A stretch of DNA of 64,000 nucleotides, from sequence record MW250785. The stretch is one strand, 5' to 3'. The position numbers and the translations under genes are program-made. Below the pieces are notes generated by a model. That model ran no database searches, was not told the origin of the DNA, and saw nothing but the letters and a program-made list of their open reading frames with translations. Positions 7,355 through 18,142 of this stretch are shown one piece after another. Source of the DNA: Escherichia phage UPEC03. The first letter of the stretch is position 1; each line of letters opens with the position of its first letter.

Positions 7355-7362
7355 TATAAATA
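7355..7362 (+). promoter_or_regulatory. T4-type late promoter TATAAATA
   Basis: Exact TATAAATA 32 nt upstream of the gp34 start codon. Confidence 0.7.
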
Positions 7363-7393: not shown

Positions 7394-10300
7394 ATGGTAG
7401 CTAAATCATTCCGCGCCACAAGTGGCCTTGATGCTGCTGGCGAAAAAGTTATCAACGTTGGTAAAGCATCACGCTCTGTGTTGAGCGACGGCGTGAACGT
7501 TGACTTTTTTAACGAATTTAACACGATCCAACAATACGATTCTACCCGTGGTTATGCTGCGTTTATGGCTATCATGTACGCGCGTCGTATTTGGTACGCT
7601 CGCGCAGATATTCCATCACCAGCGGGTGCTTTCGATGAAACAAAATGGATCTCAACCCGTAACGATCCAAAATGGGTATATAACAACGTAACGAGCAATG
7701 ACGGTCTCCCTGTTGAATCCGGTACGTACTTAATGGCTGACGGTCGTTTCTCTGAATTGACCTATATTCTGCCAGATGCCCCTGTTGAGGGTGATATTAT
7801 CACTATTAAAGATGGTGGCGGTCTTGCAGGGATCAACAACCTGTTAGTGCGTTCAAACACTCGTCAGATCCGTTTACGTGATATTCAGTCAAGCTCTTAT
7901 CGACTGACTCACCCATATATGACCGTTGCGTTTATTTTTAACGGCAACTTATGGCGTGTTGCTGAAATGCGTGATAACCGTGATTCGCAGTTTGTTAATG
8001 CGACTGGTTTAACCGCTTTCCAAATGCAAGCGGGTATGGTAACATTCCGTAACAGTGGAACGGGTAAAATTACGTTGCAGTTGCCTCGCTACGCAAACGA
8101 TGGTGACTCAATCACAACTTACGATCTGGATCGCCTTGCTTCGGTGAACGTTGCGACTCTGCAAGTTTATCCTGGTAGCGGACACACGATCAGTTATGAC
8201 GGTATCAATAACGTACCCTCTGTGACTTCACAGCGTTCCGGTTATGGTATTTTCATGTTCGATCAGGCTAATAACCGTTGGGTTGTTTATGACGGTGATC
8301 AGCGCGTTCGTCTGCGTCGTATCAGTGATGACCTGAACATGTTGCCGAACGATTACGTGTTCATTACTCCTGTTGCTGGTAGTCCTCCAACTGTGCGTAA
8401 CGTTACGCTGACTCTTCCGCAAGATGTTGCCGAAGGTGATCGCGTGTATATCAGTATGTACATGATGGGGAAAACGCAGAACTGCACGATCAAAGTTAAA
8501 GATGGTTCCGGTGAAAAGATCCGCACCAACAAAAACATGATGCAGTTCCCACAGCGTAAGGATTATCCGCCTAATGATTGGTTCAGTGTTGACACTCTGA
8601 CTTTCAATGCCGATACTGACTATCTTCCATACATGGAATTGTCGTATCTGAAAGCTACGAAAGAATGGGTAGTTGCACAGTATCGCCCGATCATTGAACG
8701 TGTCGATCCAACAAACCGTTCTCGTCTGGGTGTGATTGCGCTGGCTACACAGGCAGAAGTAAACAAGAACCATGAAGATACGCCGTCTGATGAACTGGCA
8801 GTAACCCCGCGTACACTGGCGAATAAAACCGCTACTGAAACGCGTCGTGGTATCGCTCGCCTGGCAACAACTGCGGAAGTTAACCAGAACACGACAGCAA
8901 CCTTCCTTGATGACGTGATCGTGACGCCTAAAAAGCTGAACGAACGATCAGCAACAGAAGATCGTCGTGGGGTGCTGGAAATCGCAACTCAGGCAGAAAC
9001 AAACGCTGGTACTGATGACACTACCGCAATCACGCCTAAGAAGCTCGACACACGCCGCGCGACCGAAACCCTAGCAGGTATCGGAAAACTCGTTACAACG
9101 GGCGCTACGACAGCGGAGGGGGCTTTACGTGGGGATGCTGGTACTAACGTCTACAACTTCAATAACGGTGTTGATCTGATCACTCCGAAATCATTGAACG
9201 AGAAGACGGCGACCGAAAAGTCAAAAGGTCTGGTTGTTCTGGCGACTGAAAACGAAGTGGTAACTGGTGCTGCTGCGGGATCTGCTTCAATGCCGATCGT
9301 AGTAACTCCTGAAATGCTGCATCGTAAAACGTCTACTGAAACGCGTATCGGATTGATTGAGATCGCAACCCAGACAGAAACAAACACGGGAACTGACGAT
9401 CTCCGTGCTGTAACGCCTAAGAAGCTGAACGATCGTAAAGCGACTGAATCACTTGATGGTATTATTGCCCTCGCTACCACTGCGGAAGTTGCAGCAGGTA
9501 CGGTAACGAATAAGGCGGTTGTTCCGGTTAAGCTGAAAGAGTTCTTCGACGTTACAAGTCATGTTGCGGTTGCTACCGATGACGGTTTAACTCAGTCCGG
9601 CACTATCTGGACAACGATTAACCTGGGGATTGCGTCTGCTACTGAAACACAGCGCGGTACTTTACGTGTTGCGACTCAGGGTGAAACTGATGCGGGTCTT
9701 CTGGATACCGTGTTCATTACGCCTAAGAAACTGCAAGCGAAGAAAGCGACGGATACCGCCGAAGGTATTATTCGTTGTGCGACTAACGCGGAAGCGGGTG
9801 CGGGTACTGCTACTAACCTGGCAATTACTCCGGCTACCATGCAGTTCTTGAACGGTACTGATCCGGCGTGGGGTGCGACGACAACTCGACGCGGTGCGGT
9901 GTTTATCACTACCCAATCAAACACTTTCATCGGTGATAATCTGGTTGGTTCTACTCAGGCCGTTGACGATTATCTCGAAGATTTCTATGCTGTATCGCCT
10001 CGCGGTCTGAACTTTGCTCTGCAAAACTTCTTACCGAAAATGGCAACGGCACAGAATAGTTTGAGTCTGGGCGGTGTGGTTGCTGCAAGCTGGATGCGTC
10101 GTGATGCAAACCAGACGGTAACTGGAAATAACACGTTTAACGGTACAAGCAACTTCGTTGGTAACGTAACCACTAACGGAACACTGACGGCTAACGCTGC
10201 GGTAACGGTTAACAACACCGTAACCACGAACAATAACATTAACCAGTCTGCGAAAGCAAACACTGTTTATGCAAATACTGTTCTGAGTGGTGAGGCTGCG

Positions 10301-11053
10301 GGAACCAAAAACTTGCTTCGTACCTTCCGTGGTGGTGTGGCGGATACGATCTGGCATGAAACTGTTCAGGCAAGCACGTATCGCCTGGCGACGGGTACAA
10401 CGGATCTGGTTGACGTTCTGACAGTAGGTGATGTCGGTAACGGCACAATGGCGTATTCCGGTACGAACATTCGTCTGAATGGTAAAGCTCTGGCTAACAT
10501 CAACACGGCGGGTGATTTGTTTGTTGCAAGTACAGCAACGCCTACGGTACAATTACGAACCGCTGCAACTAATGGTTGGAACGGTGTAACAATCAGTAAT
10601 GACGGCGGCACAACCACTGCAACCGTGATCAACACCCGAAACTTTACCCAGCATCTTGACAGTACCTATGTCAACGTAGCGGGTGATACTATGACTGGTG
10701 CGCTGTCAGTTAGCGTAAACGGTACGGGTGGACGCTTTACCAGTGTGAGCGGTACGGCACATGTTCAGGCGGGTGATTTCTCTGGGAACGTCCAGAAAAT
10801 GCGCTTAACTGGCATTGACGATAAGGTATTGACTGAGTTCAACATCAATATCACCGATTACAACAAAGCGATGATCAACGGAAACCTGATCTATCATGCA
10901 GGTCGTAAACCGACTCCGGCAGAAATCGGGGCGGTGGCGGTAGCGGGTTCAACCGTCGATACTCTGGTTGTACGTAACTATATCAAAATCGGTAACGTGA
11001 AAATCTTCGCAAACCCAGCAACTAAGACTTGTGAATTTGTGTGGGAGGAATAA
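7394..11053 (+). CDS. 34: long tail fibre proximal subunit
   Basis: 1219 aa; extensive collinear match to recalled T4 gp34, including the repeated ATQAE(T/V)N..TDDT.A.TPKKL motifs. Confidence 0.93.
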   Translation: MVAKSFRATSGLDAAGEKVINVGKASRSVLSDGVNVDFFNEFNTIQQYDSTRGYAAFMAIMYARRIWYARADIPSPAGAFDETKWISTRNDPKWVYNNVTSNDGLPVESGTYLMADGRFSELTYILPDAPVEGDIITIKDGGGLAGINNLLVRSNTRQIRLRDIQSSSYRLTHPYMTVAFIFNGNLWRVAEMRDNRDSQFVNATGLTAFQMQAGMVTFRNSGTGKITLQLPRYANDGDSITTYDLDRLASVNVATLQVYPGSGHTISYDGINNVPSVTSQRSGYGIFMFDQANNRWVVYDGDQRVRLRRISDDLNMLPNDYVFITPVAGSPPTVRNVTLTLPQDVAEGDRVYISMYMMGKTQNCTIKVKDGSGEKIRTNKNMMQFPQRKDYPPNDWFSVDTLTFNADTDYLPYMELSYLKATKEWVVAQYRPIIERVDPTNRSRLGVIALATQAEVNKNHEDTPSDELAVTPRTLANKTATETRRGIARLATTAEVNQNTTATFLDDVIVTPKKLNERSATEDRRGVLEIATQAETNAGTDDTTAITPKKLDTRRATETLAGIGKLVTTGATTAEGALRGDAGTNVYNFNNGVDLITPKSLNEKTATEKSKGLVVLATENEVVTGAAAGSASMPIVVTPEMLHRKTSTETRIGLIEIATQTETNTGTDDLRAVTPKKLNDRKATESLDGIIALATTAEVAAGTVTNKAVVPVKLKEFFDVTSHVAVATDDGLTQSGTIWTTINLGIASATETQRGTLRVATQGETDAGLLDTVFITPKKLQAKKATDTAEGIIRCATNAEAGAGTATNLAITPATMQFLNGTDPAWGATTTRRGAVFITTQSNTFIGDNLVGSTQAVDDYLEDFYAVSPRGLNFALQNFLPKMATAQNSLSLGGVVAASWMRRDANQTVTGNNTFNGTSNFVGNVTTNGTLTANAAVTVNNTVTTNNNINQSAKANTVYANTVLSGEAAGTKNLLRTFRGGVADTIWHETVQASTYRLATGTTDLVDVLTVGDVGNGTMAYSGTNIRLNGKALANINTAGDLFVASTATPTVQLRTAATNGWNGVTISNDGGTTTATVINTRNFTQHLDSTYVNVAGDTMTGALSVSVNGTGGRFTSVSGTAHVQAGDFSGNVQKMRLTGIDDKVLTEFNINITDYNKAMINGNLIYHAGRKPTPAEIGAVAVAGSTVDTLVVRNYIKIGNVKIFANPATKTCEFVWEE

Positions 11054-11058
11054 TTTAA

Positions 11059-12654
11059 ATGGCGAATAACGAATTTATGGCGTTATTCGGCCCTGATAGT
11101 TTCACGGCGAGTGTGTTTTCAGAAGCAAACGCCGTGAAATATCGCCTTGTTGTCCGTGGAACGAATAACGATTCTGCGGTCAACTCGGTTGAGGTATCTA
11201 TCAATGGGGCTGATATTATTAACCGAAACGTACAGCGCGGTCGAGGGATTAACCTTGCTGTAATTGACGGTACGAGTTTGGCTTTGCTGGATTTCAAAAC
11301 TTTTGATATGTATGGTGATCCTACTACGAATGGGACTGCGATTAGTGATTACCTATCTACACTTCCAGCAAACAGAATTGTATGTTTCTATACGTTCGAT
11401 GCTATAAAATCTACCGATGCGTTTTTGAGTTATATGCGCACAATCGGATCAGTTGCATGGCCTGAAACACGATTCTTTAACACGCCGTCATCATCAACAA
11501 ACAACCCGCACCGTTCATCCTATTCAGCAATCTATTCATCCACGATGAAAAAGATCTGTATGGAAAACTTCGTAGGTGGTTCTGGTACTGGACTCAAAGA
11601 CAACACGACGAGTTTTGTTGAGGTTGTATTCGATGAATTCAGTGATATCGGGGTAACTGGTATTCCTGAAAGAATGGTTGATGATGTTCAGGTATATCAG
11701 AACAGTGGCAGTGCTTACGGCTTCCATTTATATGGGATGTGGGATATTGGTTCTACTGTTTTCTTGGGGGACATCTTTAAGTTCACTGGTGATGTTTATT
11801 GCTCGCAAGAACTTCGCAATGCTGGCGGCGAATGTTATCTCTATATGTGGACACAGAACGCCTCTGGTCAATGGATATCCTCTGCGGTACTGCGAACAAC
11901 TGGGTTAGCTCCTGATGAATGGCATTCTCTGTCAGGATATTTCACTATCCCTACGGACGCGCTAAACGTGAAGATGGGATGTATGGTATATCACTACCCG
12001 TCTACCGTGAAAGTGGGGCTTGCTCAGTGTCGCAATGTCCAGATCAGTAAAGTTCCACGAATCGAAACCGATCGCAACGGGGCGGCAATTGGTGTAAATG
12101 GTATCAGGATGCAAACGCTTTCCGAAGTTGATGATGCTGGAACCCAAAACCCGATTGATAAATTGCTTTCTCTGCCTGTTTCGCCTACTGGGGTTATTAG
12201 TGACAAGAAAATCAGTTCGCATAACTTTGCTGAACTTGATTATATTGTTTCTGATCCGGTTGAATACACTTCGACAAATACAGCGGAGTACCAGTTCAAA
12301 GAATGGACTGCTACCCAGCAAGCGGCGGTAACGAAAGCATCACTAAGCAGTTACGGATTAAAAGCTGGTGATACGATCCGTATGCAATGCCAAATGAAAC
12401 GCGATGCAAATGCGATTGCTAACAATAAAGGCGCATATATTGTAATGCAGTTCTGGGACGCGAATAATACGTATATTTCAGGGATCAACATGCGTGATGT
12501 TGGTACGATCCCGAACGTATATTCATTCTACAAAAACGAAGGGGTTATTCCTGCTGGTGCGGTTACGTTTGATTTCGGTTTATATCGTTATCCAAACAAC
12601 ACAAACATCGGTACGATATCCGCTAAAGACGTTAATTTGTCAATCGTGAGATAA
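11059..12654 (+). CDS. 35: long tail fibre hinge connector
   Basis: 531 aa; N-terminus MANNEFMALFGPDSF...SEANAVKYRL and NRIVCFYT segment parallel recalled T4 gp35; position directly after gp34. Confidence 0.8.
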   Translation: MANNEFMALFGPDSFTASVFSEANAVKYRLVVRGTNNDSAVNSVEVSINGADIINRNVQRGRGINLAVIDGTSLALLDFKTFDMYGDPTTNGTAISDYLSTLPANRIVCFYTFDAIKSTDAFLSYMRTIGSVAWPETRFFNTPSSSTNNPHRSSYSAIYSSTMKKICMENFVGGSGTGLKDNTTSFVEVVFDEFSDIGVTGIPERMVDDVQVYQNSGSAYGFHLYGMWDIGSTVFLGDIFKFTGDVYCSQELRNAGGECYLYMWTQNASGQWISSAVLRTTGLAPDEWHSLSGYFTIPTDALNVKMGCMVYHYPSTVKVGLAQCRNVQISKVPRIETDRNGAAIGVNGIRMQTLSEVDDAGTQNPIDKLLSLPVSPTGVISDKKISSHNFAELDYIVSDPVEYTSTNTAEYQFKEWTATQQAAVTKASLSSYGLKAGDTIRMQCQMKRDANAIANNKGAYIVMQFWDANNTYISGINMRDVGTIPNVYSFYKNEGVIPAGAVTFDFGLYRYPNNTNIGTISAKDVNLSIVR

Positions 12655-12674
12655 AGGGGCGAAAGCCCCTTTTT
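12652..12674 (+). terminator. rho-independent terminator
   Basis: aaaggggcgaaagcccc hairpin followed by ttttt. Confidence 0.6.
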
Positions 12675-12682
12675 CATAAATA
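12675..12682 (+). promoter_or_regulatory. late promoter-like CATAAATA
   Basis: One mismatch to TATAAATA, 23 nt upstream of the fibre gene ATG. Confidence 0.45.
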
Positions 12683-12705
12683 CAGTCATTACAGGAGAAA
12701 TTTTT

Positions 12706-15028
12706 ATGGCTGATTTGAAATTAGGTACAACGCTGGGTGGTGCGGGTATCTGGAGTGCTTCTAACCTTCCTCTATTGCCCTCTGGTGGACAATTAACGTA
12801 TAAAGGCTGGAGAGTATACACAGAAAATGATCGTCCAACAGCGGAGGATATAGACGCACTATCGACGATTAACGGCGGTACTGTTGCGGTATAAAGGCTG
12901 GAGAGTATACACAGAAAATGATCGTCCAACAGCGGAGGATATAGACGCACTATCGACGATTAACGGCGGTACTGTTGCGAAGAATACTACATTCAATCAG
13001 AATTTGGTTGTGGGTGCTTCATTAACTGCTAACTTGATTCAATCGAATAGTGTTCTTACCATCCAACGTAGCGCAAACCCTGCGGAAATGATTTTCTATC
13101 GTCCCGATATTACGGCAACCCCGTCATCTGAAGCATGGGTTTTAAACATGTATGCGAAAGATGGTTTGAATCGAGGCATGGGTTCGTTGATTATTTCTGC
13201 TCGTACTGACGGTGGAAATAAAGTATATCTGCGGGCGAATAAAGACGGTTCCCCTAATACAAGTTTAACGCTGGATTCGCAAACCCAACAGGTAACAGTT
13301 GAGCAAGGATCTTTTCGCGTAATCGGTACTACGAATCTTGGTGTGACGAACGCCGCATCAATGGCGGTTAGCGGTGCGGTAACTGCGAATACAGTAACCC
13401 CGACAAACTGGGCTAACCATGATGAACGATATATGACGGGCATTCCTCGCGGTATGTCTGGAACAAGTTTCGGTGCTGCTGTTGTAACTGAAAAGAACGA
13501 TGTTCTGTCGGTAGGCGGTAACATCACCGACGGCCCATATGGTAACACTACGTATTACGGGCAGGTTGTCAACTATCGCCGTACATTGAATAGTGGGGTT
13601 TCATTAGTTCAAACATACTTCGGGAACGAAATGTGGTTTCGTCTTGGATCAGGTTCTCCGGGTGCGTGGTCATGGAACCAGGGCGATGCTAATGGTTGGC
13701 GGCGTGTTTATGATACGGTCAGTCCACCAACTCCGGCAGAAGTGGGGGCAGTAAACAAAGCTGGTGATACAATGACTGGTGGTTTAGCGTTACTTGGGGA
13801 TTTGACCTTTCGAAATTTGGTAAATCGTCATATTCGTTTCGAATACACCAAAAACGACGGTTCTACCGCTGTTGACGCTTACATCTATAAAGATGGTGTA
13901 GATAGCTCTACTCGCCGTGCTGGACTTCGCATTAACTGTGCCACACCGAACAAAGCGAGCGGGAATACTTTAAACTCAGGTGATTTTGTATTCGGGGAGA
14001 ATGGTAACTTCACACTGCCTGGCGGTGGTATGATTATTCAGGACGGCCTTAACTCTGGTGTTTATTGTATTTCTGCATTGAGTACATTATCAACAGGAAC
14101 GAAGAATTACCTTCGTCGTTTCCGTGGTGGTTCTGGTGATGTGATTTTTCATGAAACCGTACAAAGTAATACATGGCGTATAGCGTCGGGTGGTTCTGAT
14201 TCACAAGATGAAATGGTTCTTTCTACTGCTGGTTCTGGTTGGGTTCGATATCGTGGAGAGGTTGTTTCGCAATCAGCTAACGGGTTGCGGATTGCGTATA
14301 ACAATAAAGGATTCTTTATCCGAAATGACTCAAACACCACATATTTCTTGTTGACTAATGATAATGATCCCTATGGCTCGTACAACAGTCTTCGCCCTTT
14401 GTATATCAACAATGATACTGGTTCTGTAACGTTAGGTCATGCTGTTGGAATAGGCGGAAACCTCAGCGTCAACGGTACATTTACCACAGCAAACAGCAGT
14501 TTGAGCAATGGTCAATTAGTATTAAACGGTTCAGGCGATTCGCAAGTTTATTTTTCACGAAGTGGTGCTAACCCTCGCGATATGAGAATTTTCCATTCTG
14601 GTGATGCTTCTCGCGGGAACCGTGTTGAAATTGCTGATTCTACATCATATCTGGTTTATTTTGAGCGTCATCCGTCAAGTGGCATTCAGTTGTCCATGAA
14701 CGGTAACGGTATCTTTAACGATGTGTATATTCGTTCTGATGAAAGACTGAAAAGTAATTTCAGTAAGATTGAAAATGCATTGGATAAAGTTGATTTGCTT
14801 GATGGTATGGTGTACGACAAAGCAAACCATATCGGGGGTGAAGAAACTACCCGCGAGGCTGGTTTAGTCGCACAACAACTGCAAGAAGTATTACCGGAAG
14901 CCGTTAAGAAAGGTGTTGATGGTGAACAGAACGAGATCTTAACTGTTTCGTCTTCTGCTGTTATTGCGTTGCTGGTTAACGCGATTAAAGAACTCCGTGA
15001 GGAAGTCAGGGAACTTAAATCCCGCTAA
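12706..15028 (+). pseudogene. distal long-tail-fibre subunit (gp36/gp37-like) with C-terminal intramolecular chaperone domain, frame-disrupted by a 91-bp tandem duplication
   Basis: N-terminal 62-aa fragment MADLKLGTTLGGAGIW... (12706-12894) ends in a stop; the rest continues in the +1 frame from 12884 (714 aa). Removing one 91-bp repeat copy restores a single ORF of about 744 aa. C-terminus carries the S-D-x-R-L-K autoprocessing motif (IRSDERLKSNF). Confidence 0.8.
12798..12979 (+). repeat. perfect tandem direct repeat, 2 x 91 bp
   Basis: Bases 12798-12888 are identical to 12889-12979 (gtataaaggctggagagtatacacag...ggcggtactgttgcg). Confidence 0.9.
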
Positions 15029-15030
15029 TT

Positions 15031-15050
15031 AAAAGCCCTTCGGGGCTTTT
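15031..15050 (+). terminator. rho-independent terminator
   Basis: aaaagcccttcggggctttt hairpin with T-run. Confidence 0.7.
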
Positions 15051-15056
15051 TCTTTT

Positions 15057-15064
15057 TATAAATA
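15057..15064 (+). promoter_or_regulatory. T4-type late promoter TATAAATA
   Basis: Exact TATAAATA 26 nt upstream of the second fibre gene. Confidence 0.7.
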
Positions 15065-15090
15065 TCATAAAAGCATTTGAGGATCTAATA

Positions 15091-17304
15091 ATGGCAGATT
15101 TAAAAGCGGGTACTACCGTTGGCGGTAATACTATCTGGAGTCAGGCAAATTTACCTGTTCTTCCTTCTGGAAATACTTTAACATACAAAGGCTTTAAGGT
15201 ATATACCGAAAACGACAAACCAACAAAAGCCGAAATCGGGTTAGGCAACGTAACGAACGACGCACAGGTGAAGAAAGCTGGCGATGATATGACCGGATCT
15301 CTGAACATCACAGGGGCGAATAGTCAATTAACTGTTCCTTATCGCCTGTTGATGCAACGTGCGGTTGCTGGAGATCCATACGTCCTGTTTGTTCGTCCAG
15401 ACAACAACCCAATTACTAACGGATATCCTTCTACAACGCTTCGTGTAATGACTATCACTGCCCGTGCTGCGACAACTACTGATCCGGTTTCTGGCGCTCA
15501 ACTGGCAAACATTTTGTCAGATCAGACAGCACAGGGTAACGGGTCATTAACTCTGCAAGCGTTTGCAGCCCCGAACACATCTACGGGCGCAAGCGGTGCG
15601 CGTACAGCGGAAGTCTATTTGAACGGTAACGGACAGTTATCAATGATAGGTTCCGGTTTAACGATCGGGATGCAGACTGTTGTAAACGGTACGATTTTCG
15701 GTACACAAATGGCTATTAAAGGCGATTCGAACCGAAACCTGTTCTTCCAGGATGCTGGCGATAATGAATTGAGTTTGATTTATGCGGATACCGGAAAGAA
15801 CTTATATGTTCGTACTGGTGGCGGCGCATATGCTACTCGTTTCGCTTCTGATGGAACTTTAGTATTAGCAAATCATCTAACCGTTCCTGGTATTGCTACT
15901 TTTAACGGTCAAGCAGTGATGAATAGCCGTTTGTCTGTGTCTACTGATTTTGACTCTCAGGGAGTCAATAGTGCGGTTATTCGTGTTGACACAAGCGGCG
16001 ACGGAAACGCGGTTGGTGATGGTGTAACCCATTTAGGATATAAAGACGGCAACGGAAGATTCAACCATTATTTCCGTGGTACTGGATCGTTATTTGTTAA
16101 CACCAAACTTGGTATGAACATCAACGTACCATCTTATTATAACGATGTACCACAAACCACTCCAGCACAATATTTCTTGTCTACGGGTACGCAAGGCGCG
16201 AAAAATTATTTGCGTCAGTTCCGAGGCGGCAACGCGGATACGATCTGGCATGAAACTGTTCAGGGTGGCTTATATCGTTTAGCGTCTGGTAGCACTGATG
16301 CGCAAGAAGAATTCATGGTTTCTACTGCTGGCTATATCAGATCTCGCGTAGAAGTACAAAGTGCTTCGTGTGGTTCTGGCGGTCAGTTCCGCGCGGTTCA
16401 GGGTAACTTCGGCGTGATGCACCGAAATGATGGTGGTAACTATTACTTCCTGATTACTAACTCTGGCGATCCGTGGGGAACGTGGAACGGATTACGCCCA
16501 TTCACCATTGGTTTGACCACGGGTATTGTATCGATGTCCAGCGGTGTTAATATCTCCGGTGGTTTCAACATCAACGGTGCTGCTGAATTTAACAACGGTC
16601 TGGGTTGTGGTACTGCAAACGGATTGGGCGCAAACGCAATATCTCTGGGTGATACCGATACAGGTTTTGTTCAAGAAGGTGATGGTATTCTCAACGCCTA
16701 CGCGAACAGCCAACGAATTCAACGTTGGACAACAGGGGCTAGTGCAGTTTATAAGCAATTGCAGGTTCAAGGCGTTAACGGGCCAGCATTACTTCTGAAC
16801 AACACCGCAAGCAACCAGTCTGTATACATGCTTTTGCAATATGCAGGTACAAACGCTGGTTATCTGGGCTTTGGTGGTTCTGATAACACCATGACAATGC
16901 ACAACTACCAGTTGAATACAAACTTACAGTTGCGCGTAAGTGACATATATGTAAACCGTGCATTGTATGGTGAAAGCACAGGCAACTTTACTGATGTGTA
17001 TATTCGTTCAGATCGCCGTCTAAAATCGAACCTGGTTGAGATTAAAGATGCTCTGGTTAAAGTAGAACAGCTTACAGGCTATGTATACGATAAACAATCA
17101 AAAGATGCGGACGAAATTGTATACCATCGCGAATCTGGTCTGATTGCACAAGATGTTCAGGAAGTATTACCTGATGCAGTAAAAGAAGATAGTAACTCCG
17201 GTATGCTTACGATTTCACCTGCGGGTGTTAACGCGCTTCTGGTGAATGCAATCAACGAACTGCGCGAACGTCTGGAAGCAATTGAAAACAAATTAGGGGC
17301 TTAA
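15091..17304 (+). CDS. 37: distal long-tail-fibre subunit (gp37-like) with C-terminal intramolecular chaperone domain
   Basis: 737 aa; N-terminus MADLKAGTTVGGNTIW...LTYKGFKVYTENDKP resembles T4 gp36/gp37 N-termini; internal NYLRQFRGG...WHETVQ and FLITNSGDP...GLRP motifs shared with gp34/gp37; C-terminal IRSDRRLKSNL autoprocessing motif. Confidence 0.85.
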   Translation: MADLKAGTTVGGNTIWSQANLPVLPSGNTLTYKGFKVYTENDKPTKAEIGLGNVTNDAQVKKAGDDMTGSLNITGANSQLTVPYRLLMQRAVAGDPYVLFVRPDNNPITNGYPSTTLRVMTITARAATTTDPVSGAQLANILSDQTAQGNGSLTLQAFAAPNTSTGASGARTAEVYLNGNGQLSMIGSGLTIGMQTVVNGTIFGTQMAIKGDSNRNLFFQDAGDNELSLIYADTGKNLYVRTGGGAYATRFASDGTLVLANHLTVPGIATFNGQAVMNSRLSVSTDFDSQGVNSAVIRVDTSGDGNAVGDGVTHLGYKDGNGRFNHYFRGTGSLFVNTKLGMNINVPSYYNDVPQTTPAQYFLSTGTQGAKNYLRQFRGGNADTIWHETVQGGLYRLASGSTDAQEEFMVSTAGYIRSRVEVQSASCGSGGQFRAVQGNFGVMHRNDGGNYYFLITNSGDPWGTWNGLRPFTIGLTTGIVSMSSGVNISGGFNINGAAEFNNGLGCGTANGLGANAISLGDTDTGFVQEGDGILNAYANSQRIQRWTTGASAVYKQLQVQGVNGPALLLNNTASNQSVYMLLQYAGTNAGYLGFGGSDNTMTMHNYQLNTNLQLRVSDIYVNRALYGESTGNFTDVYIRSDRRLKSNLVEIKDALVKVEQLTGYVYDKQSKDADEIVYHRESGLIAQDVQEVLPDAVKEDSNSGMLTISPAGVNALLVNAINELRERLEAIENKLGA

Positions 17305-17329: not shown

Positions 17330-18142
17330 ATGGCTGTTGTAGGCGTACCTGGTTGGATCGGGTCTTCTGCTGTAAGCGAAACGGGTCAAAGATGGATGTC
17401 CGCTGCTGCGGGACAACTTCGATTATCTGCTGCGGGTTATATGTCACGATTTGCGGGGATCTCCCGTGAACAATCAATAACAATTTCCGCGAGTAACGCA
17501 TACGCATGGTCAACCCTGGTCAACCAGATTAAATCATTGGGTGTATCCGGTGGTGCATTCAAAATTACTGTTGTCGGGAACATCGTTTCAAACAGTGCTG
17601 GCGCTCCGTGCCTTAACTTCACATCCGATCTTGCTGGTGTCGATTATATCGAACTGATCATTAACTCCGGTGTAGGTGTTATGGGTCGTGGTGGTGCGGG
17701 TGGTGGTGATAACACAGGTGGCCCGTATTCGTCCGGTGAAAATGGTGGTGTCGGTATTACTAACGCGATCGGAAACAAACTGCGAATAACGAACAATGGT
17801 TATATTGCGGGTGGTGGTGGTGGTGGTGGCCTGGTAAACATGCCAACTTCTACATCACGACGTGTACAGGTATCCGGTGGTGGTGGTCGACCTTTCGGTG
17901 CTGCTGGTACAGGTGGTTATGACGGTAACGGTACAGCGGCAACAATTTCCGCTCCTGGTTCCGGTGGTTCTTCGAGTCTATCACAAGCTGGTGCGGGTGG
18001 TAACTTAGGTGCGGCTGGTCAATATCCACCTAAAGCCGATGGTCGTCTGGAAGCTCAAGCGGCGGGTGCTGCGGGTGCTGCGGTTAACGGTAACGCGCCA
18101 ACGTGGAGAACTGTAGGGACAATTTACGGTTCGAGAGTTTAA
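17330..18142 (+). CDS. 38: T2-type tail fibre adhesin with glycine-rich motifs
   Basis: 270 aa; N-terminus MAVVGVPGWIGSSAV.ETGQRWMS.AAGQLRL matches recalled T2-family gp38; poly-Gly runs (GGGGGGG, GGGGRPFGAAGTGG); C-terminus PTW..VG.IYG.RV. Confidence 0.85.
   Translation: MAVVGVPGWIGSSAVSETGQRWMSAAAGQLRLSAAGYMSRFAGISREQSITISASNAYAWSTLVNQIKSLGVSGGAFKITVVGNIVSNSAGAPCLNFTSDLAGVDYIELIINSGVGVMGRGGAGGGDNTGGPYSSGENGGVGITNAIGNKLRITNNGYIAGGGGGGGLVNMPTSTSRRVQVSGGGGRPFGAAGTGGYDGNGTAATISAPGSGGSSSLSQAGAGGNLGAAGQYPPKADGRLEAQAAGAAGAAVNGNAPTWRTVGTIYGSRV

Follow-up and report, generated by a model that had tools for sequence, protein, structure and literature searches.

Does Escherichia phage UPEC03 carry a broken gene for the first of its two distal tail fibres, or does the break belong to the deposited sequence alone? 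The question is raised by a 64,000-nt stretch of the GenBank record MW250785 (hereinafter the window, in whose coordinates all positions are given), in which bases 12798–12888 and 12889–12979 are identical at 91 of 91 positions by direct string comparison. TRF describes the same array with a period of 91, 2.0 copies, 100% matches and a score of 364, in agreement with the perfect 91-bp duplication reported in the initial annotation of this DNA, and a repeat search found no second perfect tandem duplication within the 64 kb. A perfect repeat of 91 nt cannot have originated by chance. The array comprises exactly 2.0 copies: copy 1 is preceded by C where the unit ends in G, and copy 2 is followed by A where the unit begins with G. 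Since no base is common to either array boundary, this comparison of boundary bases yields a junction microhomology of 0 nt on both sides. In the record copy 1 begins at ...TTAAC/GTATAA... (the slash marks the boundary) and copy 2 ends at ...GTTGCG/AAGAAT..., while the two copies meet at ...GGTACTGTTGCG/GTATAAAGGCTG... (with ...ACGGCGGTACTGTTGCG/GTATAAAGGCTGGAGAG... as the alternative extent of the junction k-mer span); the boundaries of the unit in single copy are CAATTAAC/GTATAAAGG and ACTGTTGCG/AAGAATAC.

Upstream of the open reading frame from ATG 12706 lie a terminator hairpin, CATAAATA (position 12676) and a ribosome-binding site (AGGAG). The frame terminates at the TAA at 12892–12894 after 62 codons, while the remainder of the gene resumes in the +1 frame, just as had been noticed from the letters. 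Neither of the starts available to this remainder is attractive: TTG 12884 has a weak GGCGG alone upstream as a ribosome-binding site, and a start at ATG 13088 leaves the product without 97 N-terminal residues, including the region that is conserved in both paralogous fibres and across the genus. No slippery +1 site was found in the overlap of the two frames (12852–12892). A hop in the style of T4 gene 60, from GTA 12889, just before the TAA, to GTA 12905, is conceivable in formal terms, though unsupported, and would be moot if the second copy is artefactual. An exact protein look-up with the 62-aa product returned no match.

The deposited MW250785 does carry the duplication, and the only gene annotated in it at the fibre 1 position is a truncated one, QUL76917.1 (13088–15028; 646 aa), which begins at an internal ATG with MIFYRPD and falls in the same 90% cluster as the full-length protein discussed below; it is an exact suffix (P0121) of the reading frame 12884–15028, shorter by 68 codons. 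Six other reading frames of the window have exact translations among the deposited proteins (QUL76918.1, QUL76919.1, QUL76914.1, QUL76904.1, QUL76967.1 and QUL76995.1). The order of these accessions is contiguous across the junction (gp34, QUL76914; fibre 1, QUL76917; fibre 2, QUL76918; with terL at QUL76859), which places the junction in the interior of MW250785 and rules out that the array is a direct repeat from the termini of the record, brought together by a wrapped window. The genome of the related Enterobacter phage EC-F1 begins at terS, and in such a layout the window would start about 32.4 kb in; this is suggestive of how the record was laid out but is not evidence.

Deletion of one copy gives a gene of 2232 nt, encoding 743 aa plus a stop with no further stop codon, close to the continuous fibre of about 744 aa that the initial annotation had predicted. 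Its first 218 residues form a gp36-like N-terminus (phrog_1425, E 3e-22), followed by a Gp34_trimer domain at residues 466–537 (PF21446, 66.4 bits against a cut-off of 27; window about 14192–14407) and a Peptidase_S74 domain at residues 647–704 (PF13884, 52.3 bits against a cut-off of 22; window about 14735–14908), and the motif YIRSDERLKSN is present. From these family assignments, the N-terminus is predicted to dock on the fibre knee and the protein to bind a receptor, and self-removal of the Peptidase_S74 domain by cleavage is expected once the protein has trimerised; most T-even-like gp37 proteins have such a self-cleaving chaperone domain and subsequently bind gp38 (PMC9569957). The restored protein matches its counterpart in Enterobacter phage vB_EkoM5VN (BCM29312.1) at 735 of 744 positions, counting 743 residues and the stop, and its gene has a pN/pS of 0.10 against each of two relatives. 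Judged by its substitutions, the restored gene shows strong purifying selection and no sign of decay apart from the duplication. Copy 1 of the unit encodes residues 31–61 of this protein, within the conserved gp36-like N-terminal region, and it is here that the single-copy relatives align.

The surroundings of the gene (Table 1) are those expected of a fibre of the gp36-37 type, which lies between gp35 on one side and fibre 2 with gp38 on the other. The window represents a mosaic Pseudotevenvirus of the RB43-like Straboviridae, with its fibre region nearest to vB_EkoM5VN (98.2%) and its replication region nearest to EC-F1 (99.6%). The gp36-like N-terminus, Gp34_trimer and Peptidase_S74 domains are all found by Pfam and PHROGs in both fibre paralogs, and the corresponding pair in RB43 (AY266307) is annotated as gp36-37.1 and gp36-37.2, which bears out the earlier identification of this gene as the first of two distal tail-fibre genes. 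Fibre 2 is served by a separate late promoter, TATAAATA, at 15057, and gp38 is recognised by the Pfam families GP38 (E 9e-49) and Gp38_N. The underlying gene is an ordinary, intact member of the gp36-37 distal-fibre family that is present throughout Pseudotevenvirus.

Table 1. Features of the fibre locus of UPEC03 in window coordinates.
Feature	Position	Strand	Product	Evidence or remark
gp34	7394–11053		1219 aa	QUL76914.1, exact
30-nt exact repeat, copy 1	10341–10370	+		gp34 C-terminus; left end of Logan contig _40
gp35-like proximal connector	11059–12654	+	531 aa	phrog_1154, E 3e-177; upstream neighbour of fibre 1
62-aa reading frame made by the duplication	12706–12894	+	62 aa	Native residues 1–61 plus Val, then TAA
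Fibre 1, restored; gp36-37.1-type distal long-tail-fibre protein	12706–15028	+	743 aa	Pfam, PHROGs
Copy 1 of the 91-nt unit	12798–12888	+		TRF, repeat search, string identity
+1-frame reading frame, remainder of the fibre gene	12884–15028	+	714 aa	From TTG 12884
Copy 2 of the 91-nt unit (extra copy)	12889–12979	+		No counterpart in Logan SRR16019039 or in any relative
Fibre 2, second distal paralog; gp36-37.2 / gp37 type	15091–17304	+	737 aa, intact	QUL76918.1
30-nt exact repeat, copy 2	16235–16264	+		Within fibre 2; right end of contig _40 and start of _41
gp38 adhesin, GP38 family	17330–18142	+	270 aa, intact	QUL76919.1

Comparison with relatives, which the initial annotation had proposed as a check, found no second copy: all 62 related GenBank records (62/62) have the unit once and are colinear with a one-copy query. 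In EkoM5VN and in Kp_GWPR59 the ortholog runs uninterrupted over 2232 nt and aligns with the unit in one copy, and the first fibre gene is likewise intact, at 721–745 aa, in five further loci from NCBI, ENA and Logan (L007–L010 and L012). The 24-mer spanning the junction, GTACTGTTGCGGTATAAAGGCTGG, has no match in IMG/VR, the JGI metagenomes or the GTDB genomes; a search for IMG/VR loci with the restored protein gave no confirmed relative, and we found no literature on such a duplication in Pseudotevenvirus. In the alignment to these relatives both copies bear the same lineage-specific G, which makes the event, whether real or artificial, particular to the record MW250785.

An assembly that is independent of the deposited one carries most weight in deciding between the two. 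The restored fibre 1 is 100% identical over its 743 aa to P0001, a protein whose sole source is the Logan assembly of run SRR16019039, where it is encoded on a contig of 5832 bp (SRR16019039_40; locus L005). This contig equals window positions 10341–16263 minus 91 nt, with 0 mismatches. Together with its neighbours _43 and _41 it matches window positions 1–49251 at 100.000%, with 0 mismatches and 0 gaps barring the second copy; hence, over about 49 kb the sole difference between the record and the Logan assembly is that the 91-nt unit is present once and not twice. The exact fibre 1, gp35 and gp38 proteins are found in SRR16019039 and in no other sample of the index, the exact gp35-like protein being on contig SRR16019039_40 only. 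On the strength of this sequence identity, of the confinement of these proteins to one indexed sample and of the period to which the accession number belongs, we take SRR16019039 to be, in all likelihood, UPEC03's own run under the experiment SRX12305929. We found no mention of the run accession in the literature. The coverage of SRR16019039 is roughly 250x.

It has to be asked whether such an assembly could display a duplication in the first place. Logan starts from unitigs at k=31, in which no k-mers but singletons are discarded, and simplifies them conservatively, in the manner of SPAdes, with Minia3 (PMC12424806). As no 31-mer occurs twice in a Logan contig file, a duplication of 91 nt could never appear there as two copies; a real one would nevertheless be visible through the branch nodes that it introduces where the unit starts and where it stops. 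We accordingly built k=31 de Bruijn graphs for the one-copy and the two-copy sequences. The only branch nodes of the one-copy graph, at 10340/10341 and 16234/16235 (record coordinates), belong to a 30-nt exact repeat that gp34 and fibre 2 have in common, and from them the two termini of contig _40 (10341 and 16263) are predicted to the base. In the two-copy graph there are additional branch nodes at 12798, 12859, 12889 and 12950, at which the contig would split. The 30-nt repeat thus serves as an internal control for how Logan handles repeats. The assembly also interrupts fibre 2 by a contig end, and an exact look-up of fibre 2 had no match in an index that does not include the window's own NCBI record. 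Contig _40 is unbroken across the left flank, the unit and the right flank, as seen at the level of contigs rather than reads. Being broken at the 30-nt repeat and unbroken at the unit, it indicates that the junction 31-mers were either absent or pruned as being of low coverage.

Taking these results together, we favor the interpretation that the second 91-nt copy belongs to MW250785 and not to the phage genome in the stock, having arisen as an artefact of assembly or finishing, and we would give this a probability of roughly 0.7. Reads with a single copy had been named beforehand as the observation by which an artefact would be recognised, and the Logan assembly of SRR16019039, identical over 49 kb, in effect supplies it. 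Of the three readings offered in the initial annotation only the assembly artefact is supported; a fixed inactivating mutation is contradicted by the single-copy assembly, and nothing speaks for a reversible on/off switch.

The published procedure offers a plausible route to such an artefact. The genome of 178,307 bp (SRX12305929, BioProject PRJNA765519) was sequenced from a phage plaque-purified in three rounds, using a Nextera XT library and 149,362 MiSeq read pairs of 2x151; reads passed through Trim Galore and were assembled with SPAdes 3.11.1 at default settings, after which PHANOTATE served to call genes and PhageTerm to find the termini (PMC8928767). A linear SPAdes contig from a circularly permuted, T4-like genome would retain an overlap at its two ends, and if it were later re-opened elsewhere, through PhageTerm's re-organisation or manually, its end would be joined to its start. 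By this step the end overlap would come to lie inside the sequence as a perfect tandem repeat, at any position whatever and with no microhomology. The repeat seen here is perfectly identical, is the only one of its kind in the window, and lacks its second copy in an independent assembly of what are probably the same reads. Its length is the feature that fits less well. The largest k that SPAdes uses by default for 151-nt reads is 77, so that the simplest version of a k-mer overlap predicts a 77-nt repeat, against the 91 nt observed; an overlap longer than this, of k plus a short graph edge, is possible. A mis-assembly by way of the paralogous fibre N-termini was also considered and rejected, there being no repeat of at least 30 nt common to 12706–12900 and 15091–15290.

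The alternative that survives best is that the duplication is real in a minority of the stock, SPAdes having written a low-coverage loop into the consensus that Logan pruned. In a T4-like phage two perfect 91-nt copies would be ready partners for recombination, and genomes with one and with two copies would consequently coexist; the rII region of T4 provides the classical example of tandem duplications that segregate through homologous recombination. The Logan contig shows the junction edge to be absent or much weaker than its neighbors, 91 nt is not the length of any default SPAdes k, and with fibre 2 and gp38 intact the loss of one distal paralog may be tolerated. Against this, the stock had been plaque-purified three times, the junction lacks microhomology and occurs in no relative and no other dataset, and the frequency of the two-copy form would have had to survive pruning by SPAdes yet fail that by Minia3, a range that we infer to be narrow. 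We therefore regard this explanation as a secondary one, of clearly lower probability than an artefact though the strongest of its competitors.

A fixed, recent inactivating mutation is less probable again. The phage would lack full-length fibre 1 and infect through fibre 2 and gp38, with a truncated product that might be made from TTG 12884 or ATG 13088. Such an event would have to be very recent, which the otherwise undecayed state of the gene would fit, and the deposited record and its annotation both bear the duplication. However, were the duplication fixed, its junction would be present at full coverage and the corresponding 31-mers would split the Logan contig, with which the unsplit contig is incompatible; this lesion could survive only if SRR16019039 is not the library behind MW250785. 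The short homology that is usual, though not obligatory, at such end points amounts here to 0 nt, and the two candidate starts suffer from the shortcomings described above (the weak GGCGG before TTG 12884 and the loss of 97 N-terminal residues from ATG 13088).

It is highly doubtful that a real two-copy sub-population, by duplication and rapid recombinational loss, makes fibre 1 a reversible state that changes the host range within a lysate. Least probable of all, to a degree that we would discount it, is a programmed, reversible on/off switch for one of two receptor-binding fibres by duplication and deletion between direct repeats: although deletion of one perfect 91-nt copy restores the gene exactly and the locus does encode two paralogous fibres, there is no flanking direct repeat or microhomology to make the forward duplication frequent, we noted no recombinase or retroelement in the fibre locus (about 7.4–18.2 kb), the junction occurs in 0/62 related GenBank records and is missing from IMG/VR, the JGI metagenomes and the GTDB genomes, the only dataset for the phage assembles to a single copy, and a high reverse rate coupled to a rare forward rate makes for an unstable mutation and not a switch.

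The main value of this result lies in data quality, the 91-nt duplication being most likely not a real feature of the phage. MW250785 is apparently longer than the genome by 91 bp, and its annotation gives fibre 1 as a truncated 646-aa product under a misleading name (QUL76917.1); UPEC03 almost certainly encodes an intact 743-aa fibre 1, and both entries need correction. Host-range prediction, catalogues of receptor-binding proteins and the design of phage therapy that draw on MW250785 would wrongly score fibre 1 as defective. More generally, the Logan k-mer assembly of deposited reads provides a cheap test of suspicious tandem duplications that does not call for re-mapping, because a real tandem duplication is bound to leave contig breaks on either side of its unit.

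Among known phenomena, the array most resembles the artefacts of overlapping contig ends that stem from SPAdes k-mer overlap. As in these, the copies are identical, the position is arbitrary and intragenic, microhomology is lacking, and the repeat is missing from the relatives and from an independent assembly of apparently the same reads. The UPEC03 pipeline likewise combined SPAdes with PhageTerm, the latter of which writes a re-organised sequence (PMC8928767). It differs from them in length, its 91 nt departing from the default final k of SPAdes, 77; the original contig ends would have to have lain at this position.

Genuine duplications in T4-like phages offer a more distant parallel. Spontaneous tandem duplications are known in the rII region of T4, where they are unstable through homologous recombination, and Tetart et al. 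are said to have found in 1996 that in-frame duplications in T4 gene 37 extend the host range. The likeness consists in a short tandem repeat inside a gene of a T4-like phage, here too a tail-fibre gene. Yet the gene 37 duplications are in frame, affect the C-terminal adhesin region and were selected on new hosts, whereas that of UPEC03 is out of frame, falls in the conserved N-terminal region and is unsupported by the SRR16019039 assembly. Alternate receptor-binding specificities are produced in other phages by inversion of the G-segment of Mu (Gin) and the C-segment of P1 (Cin) and by the diversity-generating retroelement of Bordetella phage BPP-1. These systems depend on dedicated machinery (an invertase and the inverted repeats on which it acts, or a reverse transcriptase and its template repeats) and are conserved among relatives; at the UPEC03 fibre locus (about 7.4–18.2 kb) no such machinery was seen, and the duplication is confined to a single record.

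The closest comparison for the locus itself is with the paralogous fibres of RB43 (AY266307) and with the gp37, which has a self-cleaving C-terminal chaperone, and the gp38 adhesin of RB49 and S16. The same order of gp34, gp35, fibre 1, fibre 2 and gp38 is found in UPEC03, whose gp38 is an adhesin of the 270-aa GP38 type where its nearest relatives in the fibre region have a gp38 of 172 aa. Once the extra copy is removed, nothing unusual is left that would set the UPEC03 locus apart from this RB43/RB49/S16 type.

Ahead of both the first and the second distal fibre genes (fibre 1 and fibre 2), a terminator-like hairpin is followed by a T4-type late-promoter box, and a further such box precedes gp34 (see table). 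Given this arrangement, each distal fibre gene looks like a separate late transcription unit, as judged from its upstream sequence. The GenBank product of the shortened fibre 1 (QUL76917.1) is named 'hinge connector of long tail fiber proximal connector', at odds with its own domains, Gp34_trimer and a Peptidase_S74 fibre chaperone.

Features of the fibre region and window start
Feature	Window position	Location or match
I-TevI-like homing endonuclease gene (283 aa), 3' part	1-683	L011 3923-4774
Late-promoter box TATAAATA	7355-7362	before gp34
Exact 30-nt repeat	10341-10370	gp34 C-terminus
gp35-like connector (531 aa)	11059-12654	PF15711, E 9e-11, aa 62-132
Late-promoter box CATAAATA	12676-12683	before fibre 1
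QUL76917.1	13088-15028	shortened fibre 1
Further member of the repeat's 99-nt family	14102-14200	
Late-promoter box TATAAATA	15057-15064	before fibre 2
Exact 30-nt repeat	16235-16264	fibre 2
GP38-family adhesin (270 aa)	17330-18142	directly after fibre 2; PF05268, E 9e-49, and Gp38_N

The gp34 C-terminus and fibre 2 have an exact 30-nt repeat in common, which belongs to a 99-nt family. The repeat lies within a conserved FRGG..D.IWHETVQ segment of the Gp34_trimer domain, and fibre 1 contains this segment as well. This repeat or segment is a likely point of recombination between the fibre genes; breaks of the k=31 assemblies also fall at both copies of the repeat. Between gp34 and fibre 1, the gp35-like connector matches the Pfam ILEI/FAM3-like domain, which is surprising in a fibre hinge protein.

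At the start of the window, the homing endonuclease gene of UPEC03 is missing from four related loci (L007-L010), and many BLAST alignments consequently begin at position 703. One of these loci, L008 (JBHSCL010000010.1; 178,077 bp), is, together with members of the protein clusters, among the complete Pseudotevenvirus genomes or proteins filed under bacterial names, namely Flagellimonas marina, Brucella melitensis, and Enterobacter asburiae. The first two are implausible as hosts of a Pseudotevenvirus, and such entries suggest that the assemblies are contaminated or include a carried phage.

Downstream of fibre 2, the 270-aa adhesin (QUL76919.1) bears the GenBank name 'distal long tail fiber assembly catalyst'. 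Whereas UPEC03 has this protein, EkoM5VN and Kp_GWPR59, the phages nearest to it in the fibre region, encode a 172-aa gp38 at the matching position, which indicates that the adhesin module has been exchanged between close relatives.
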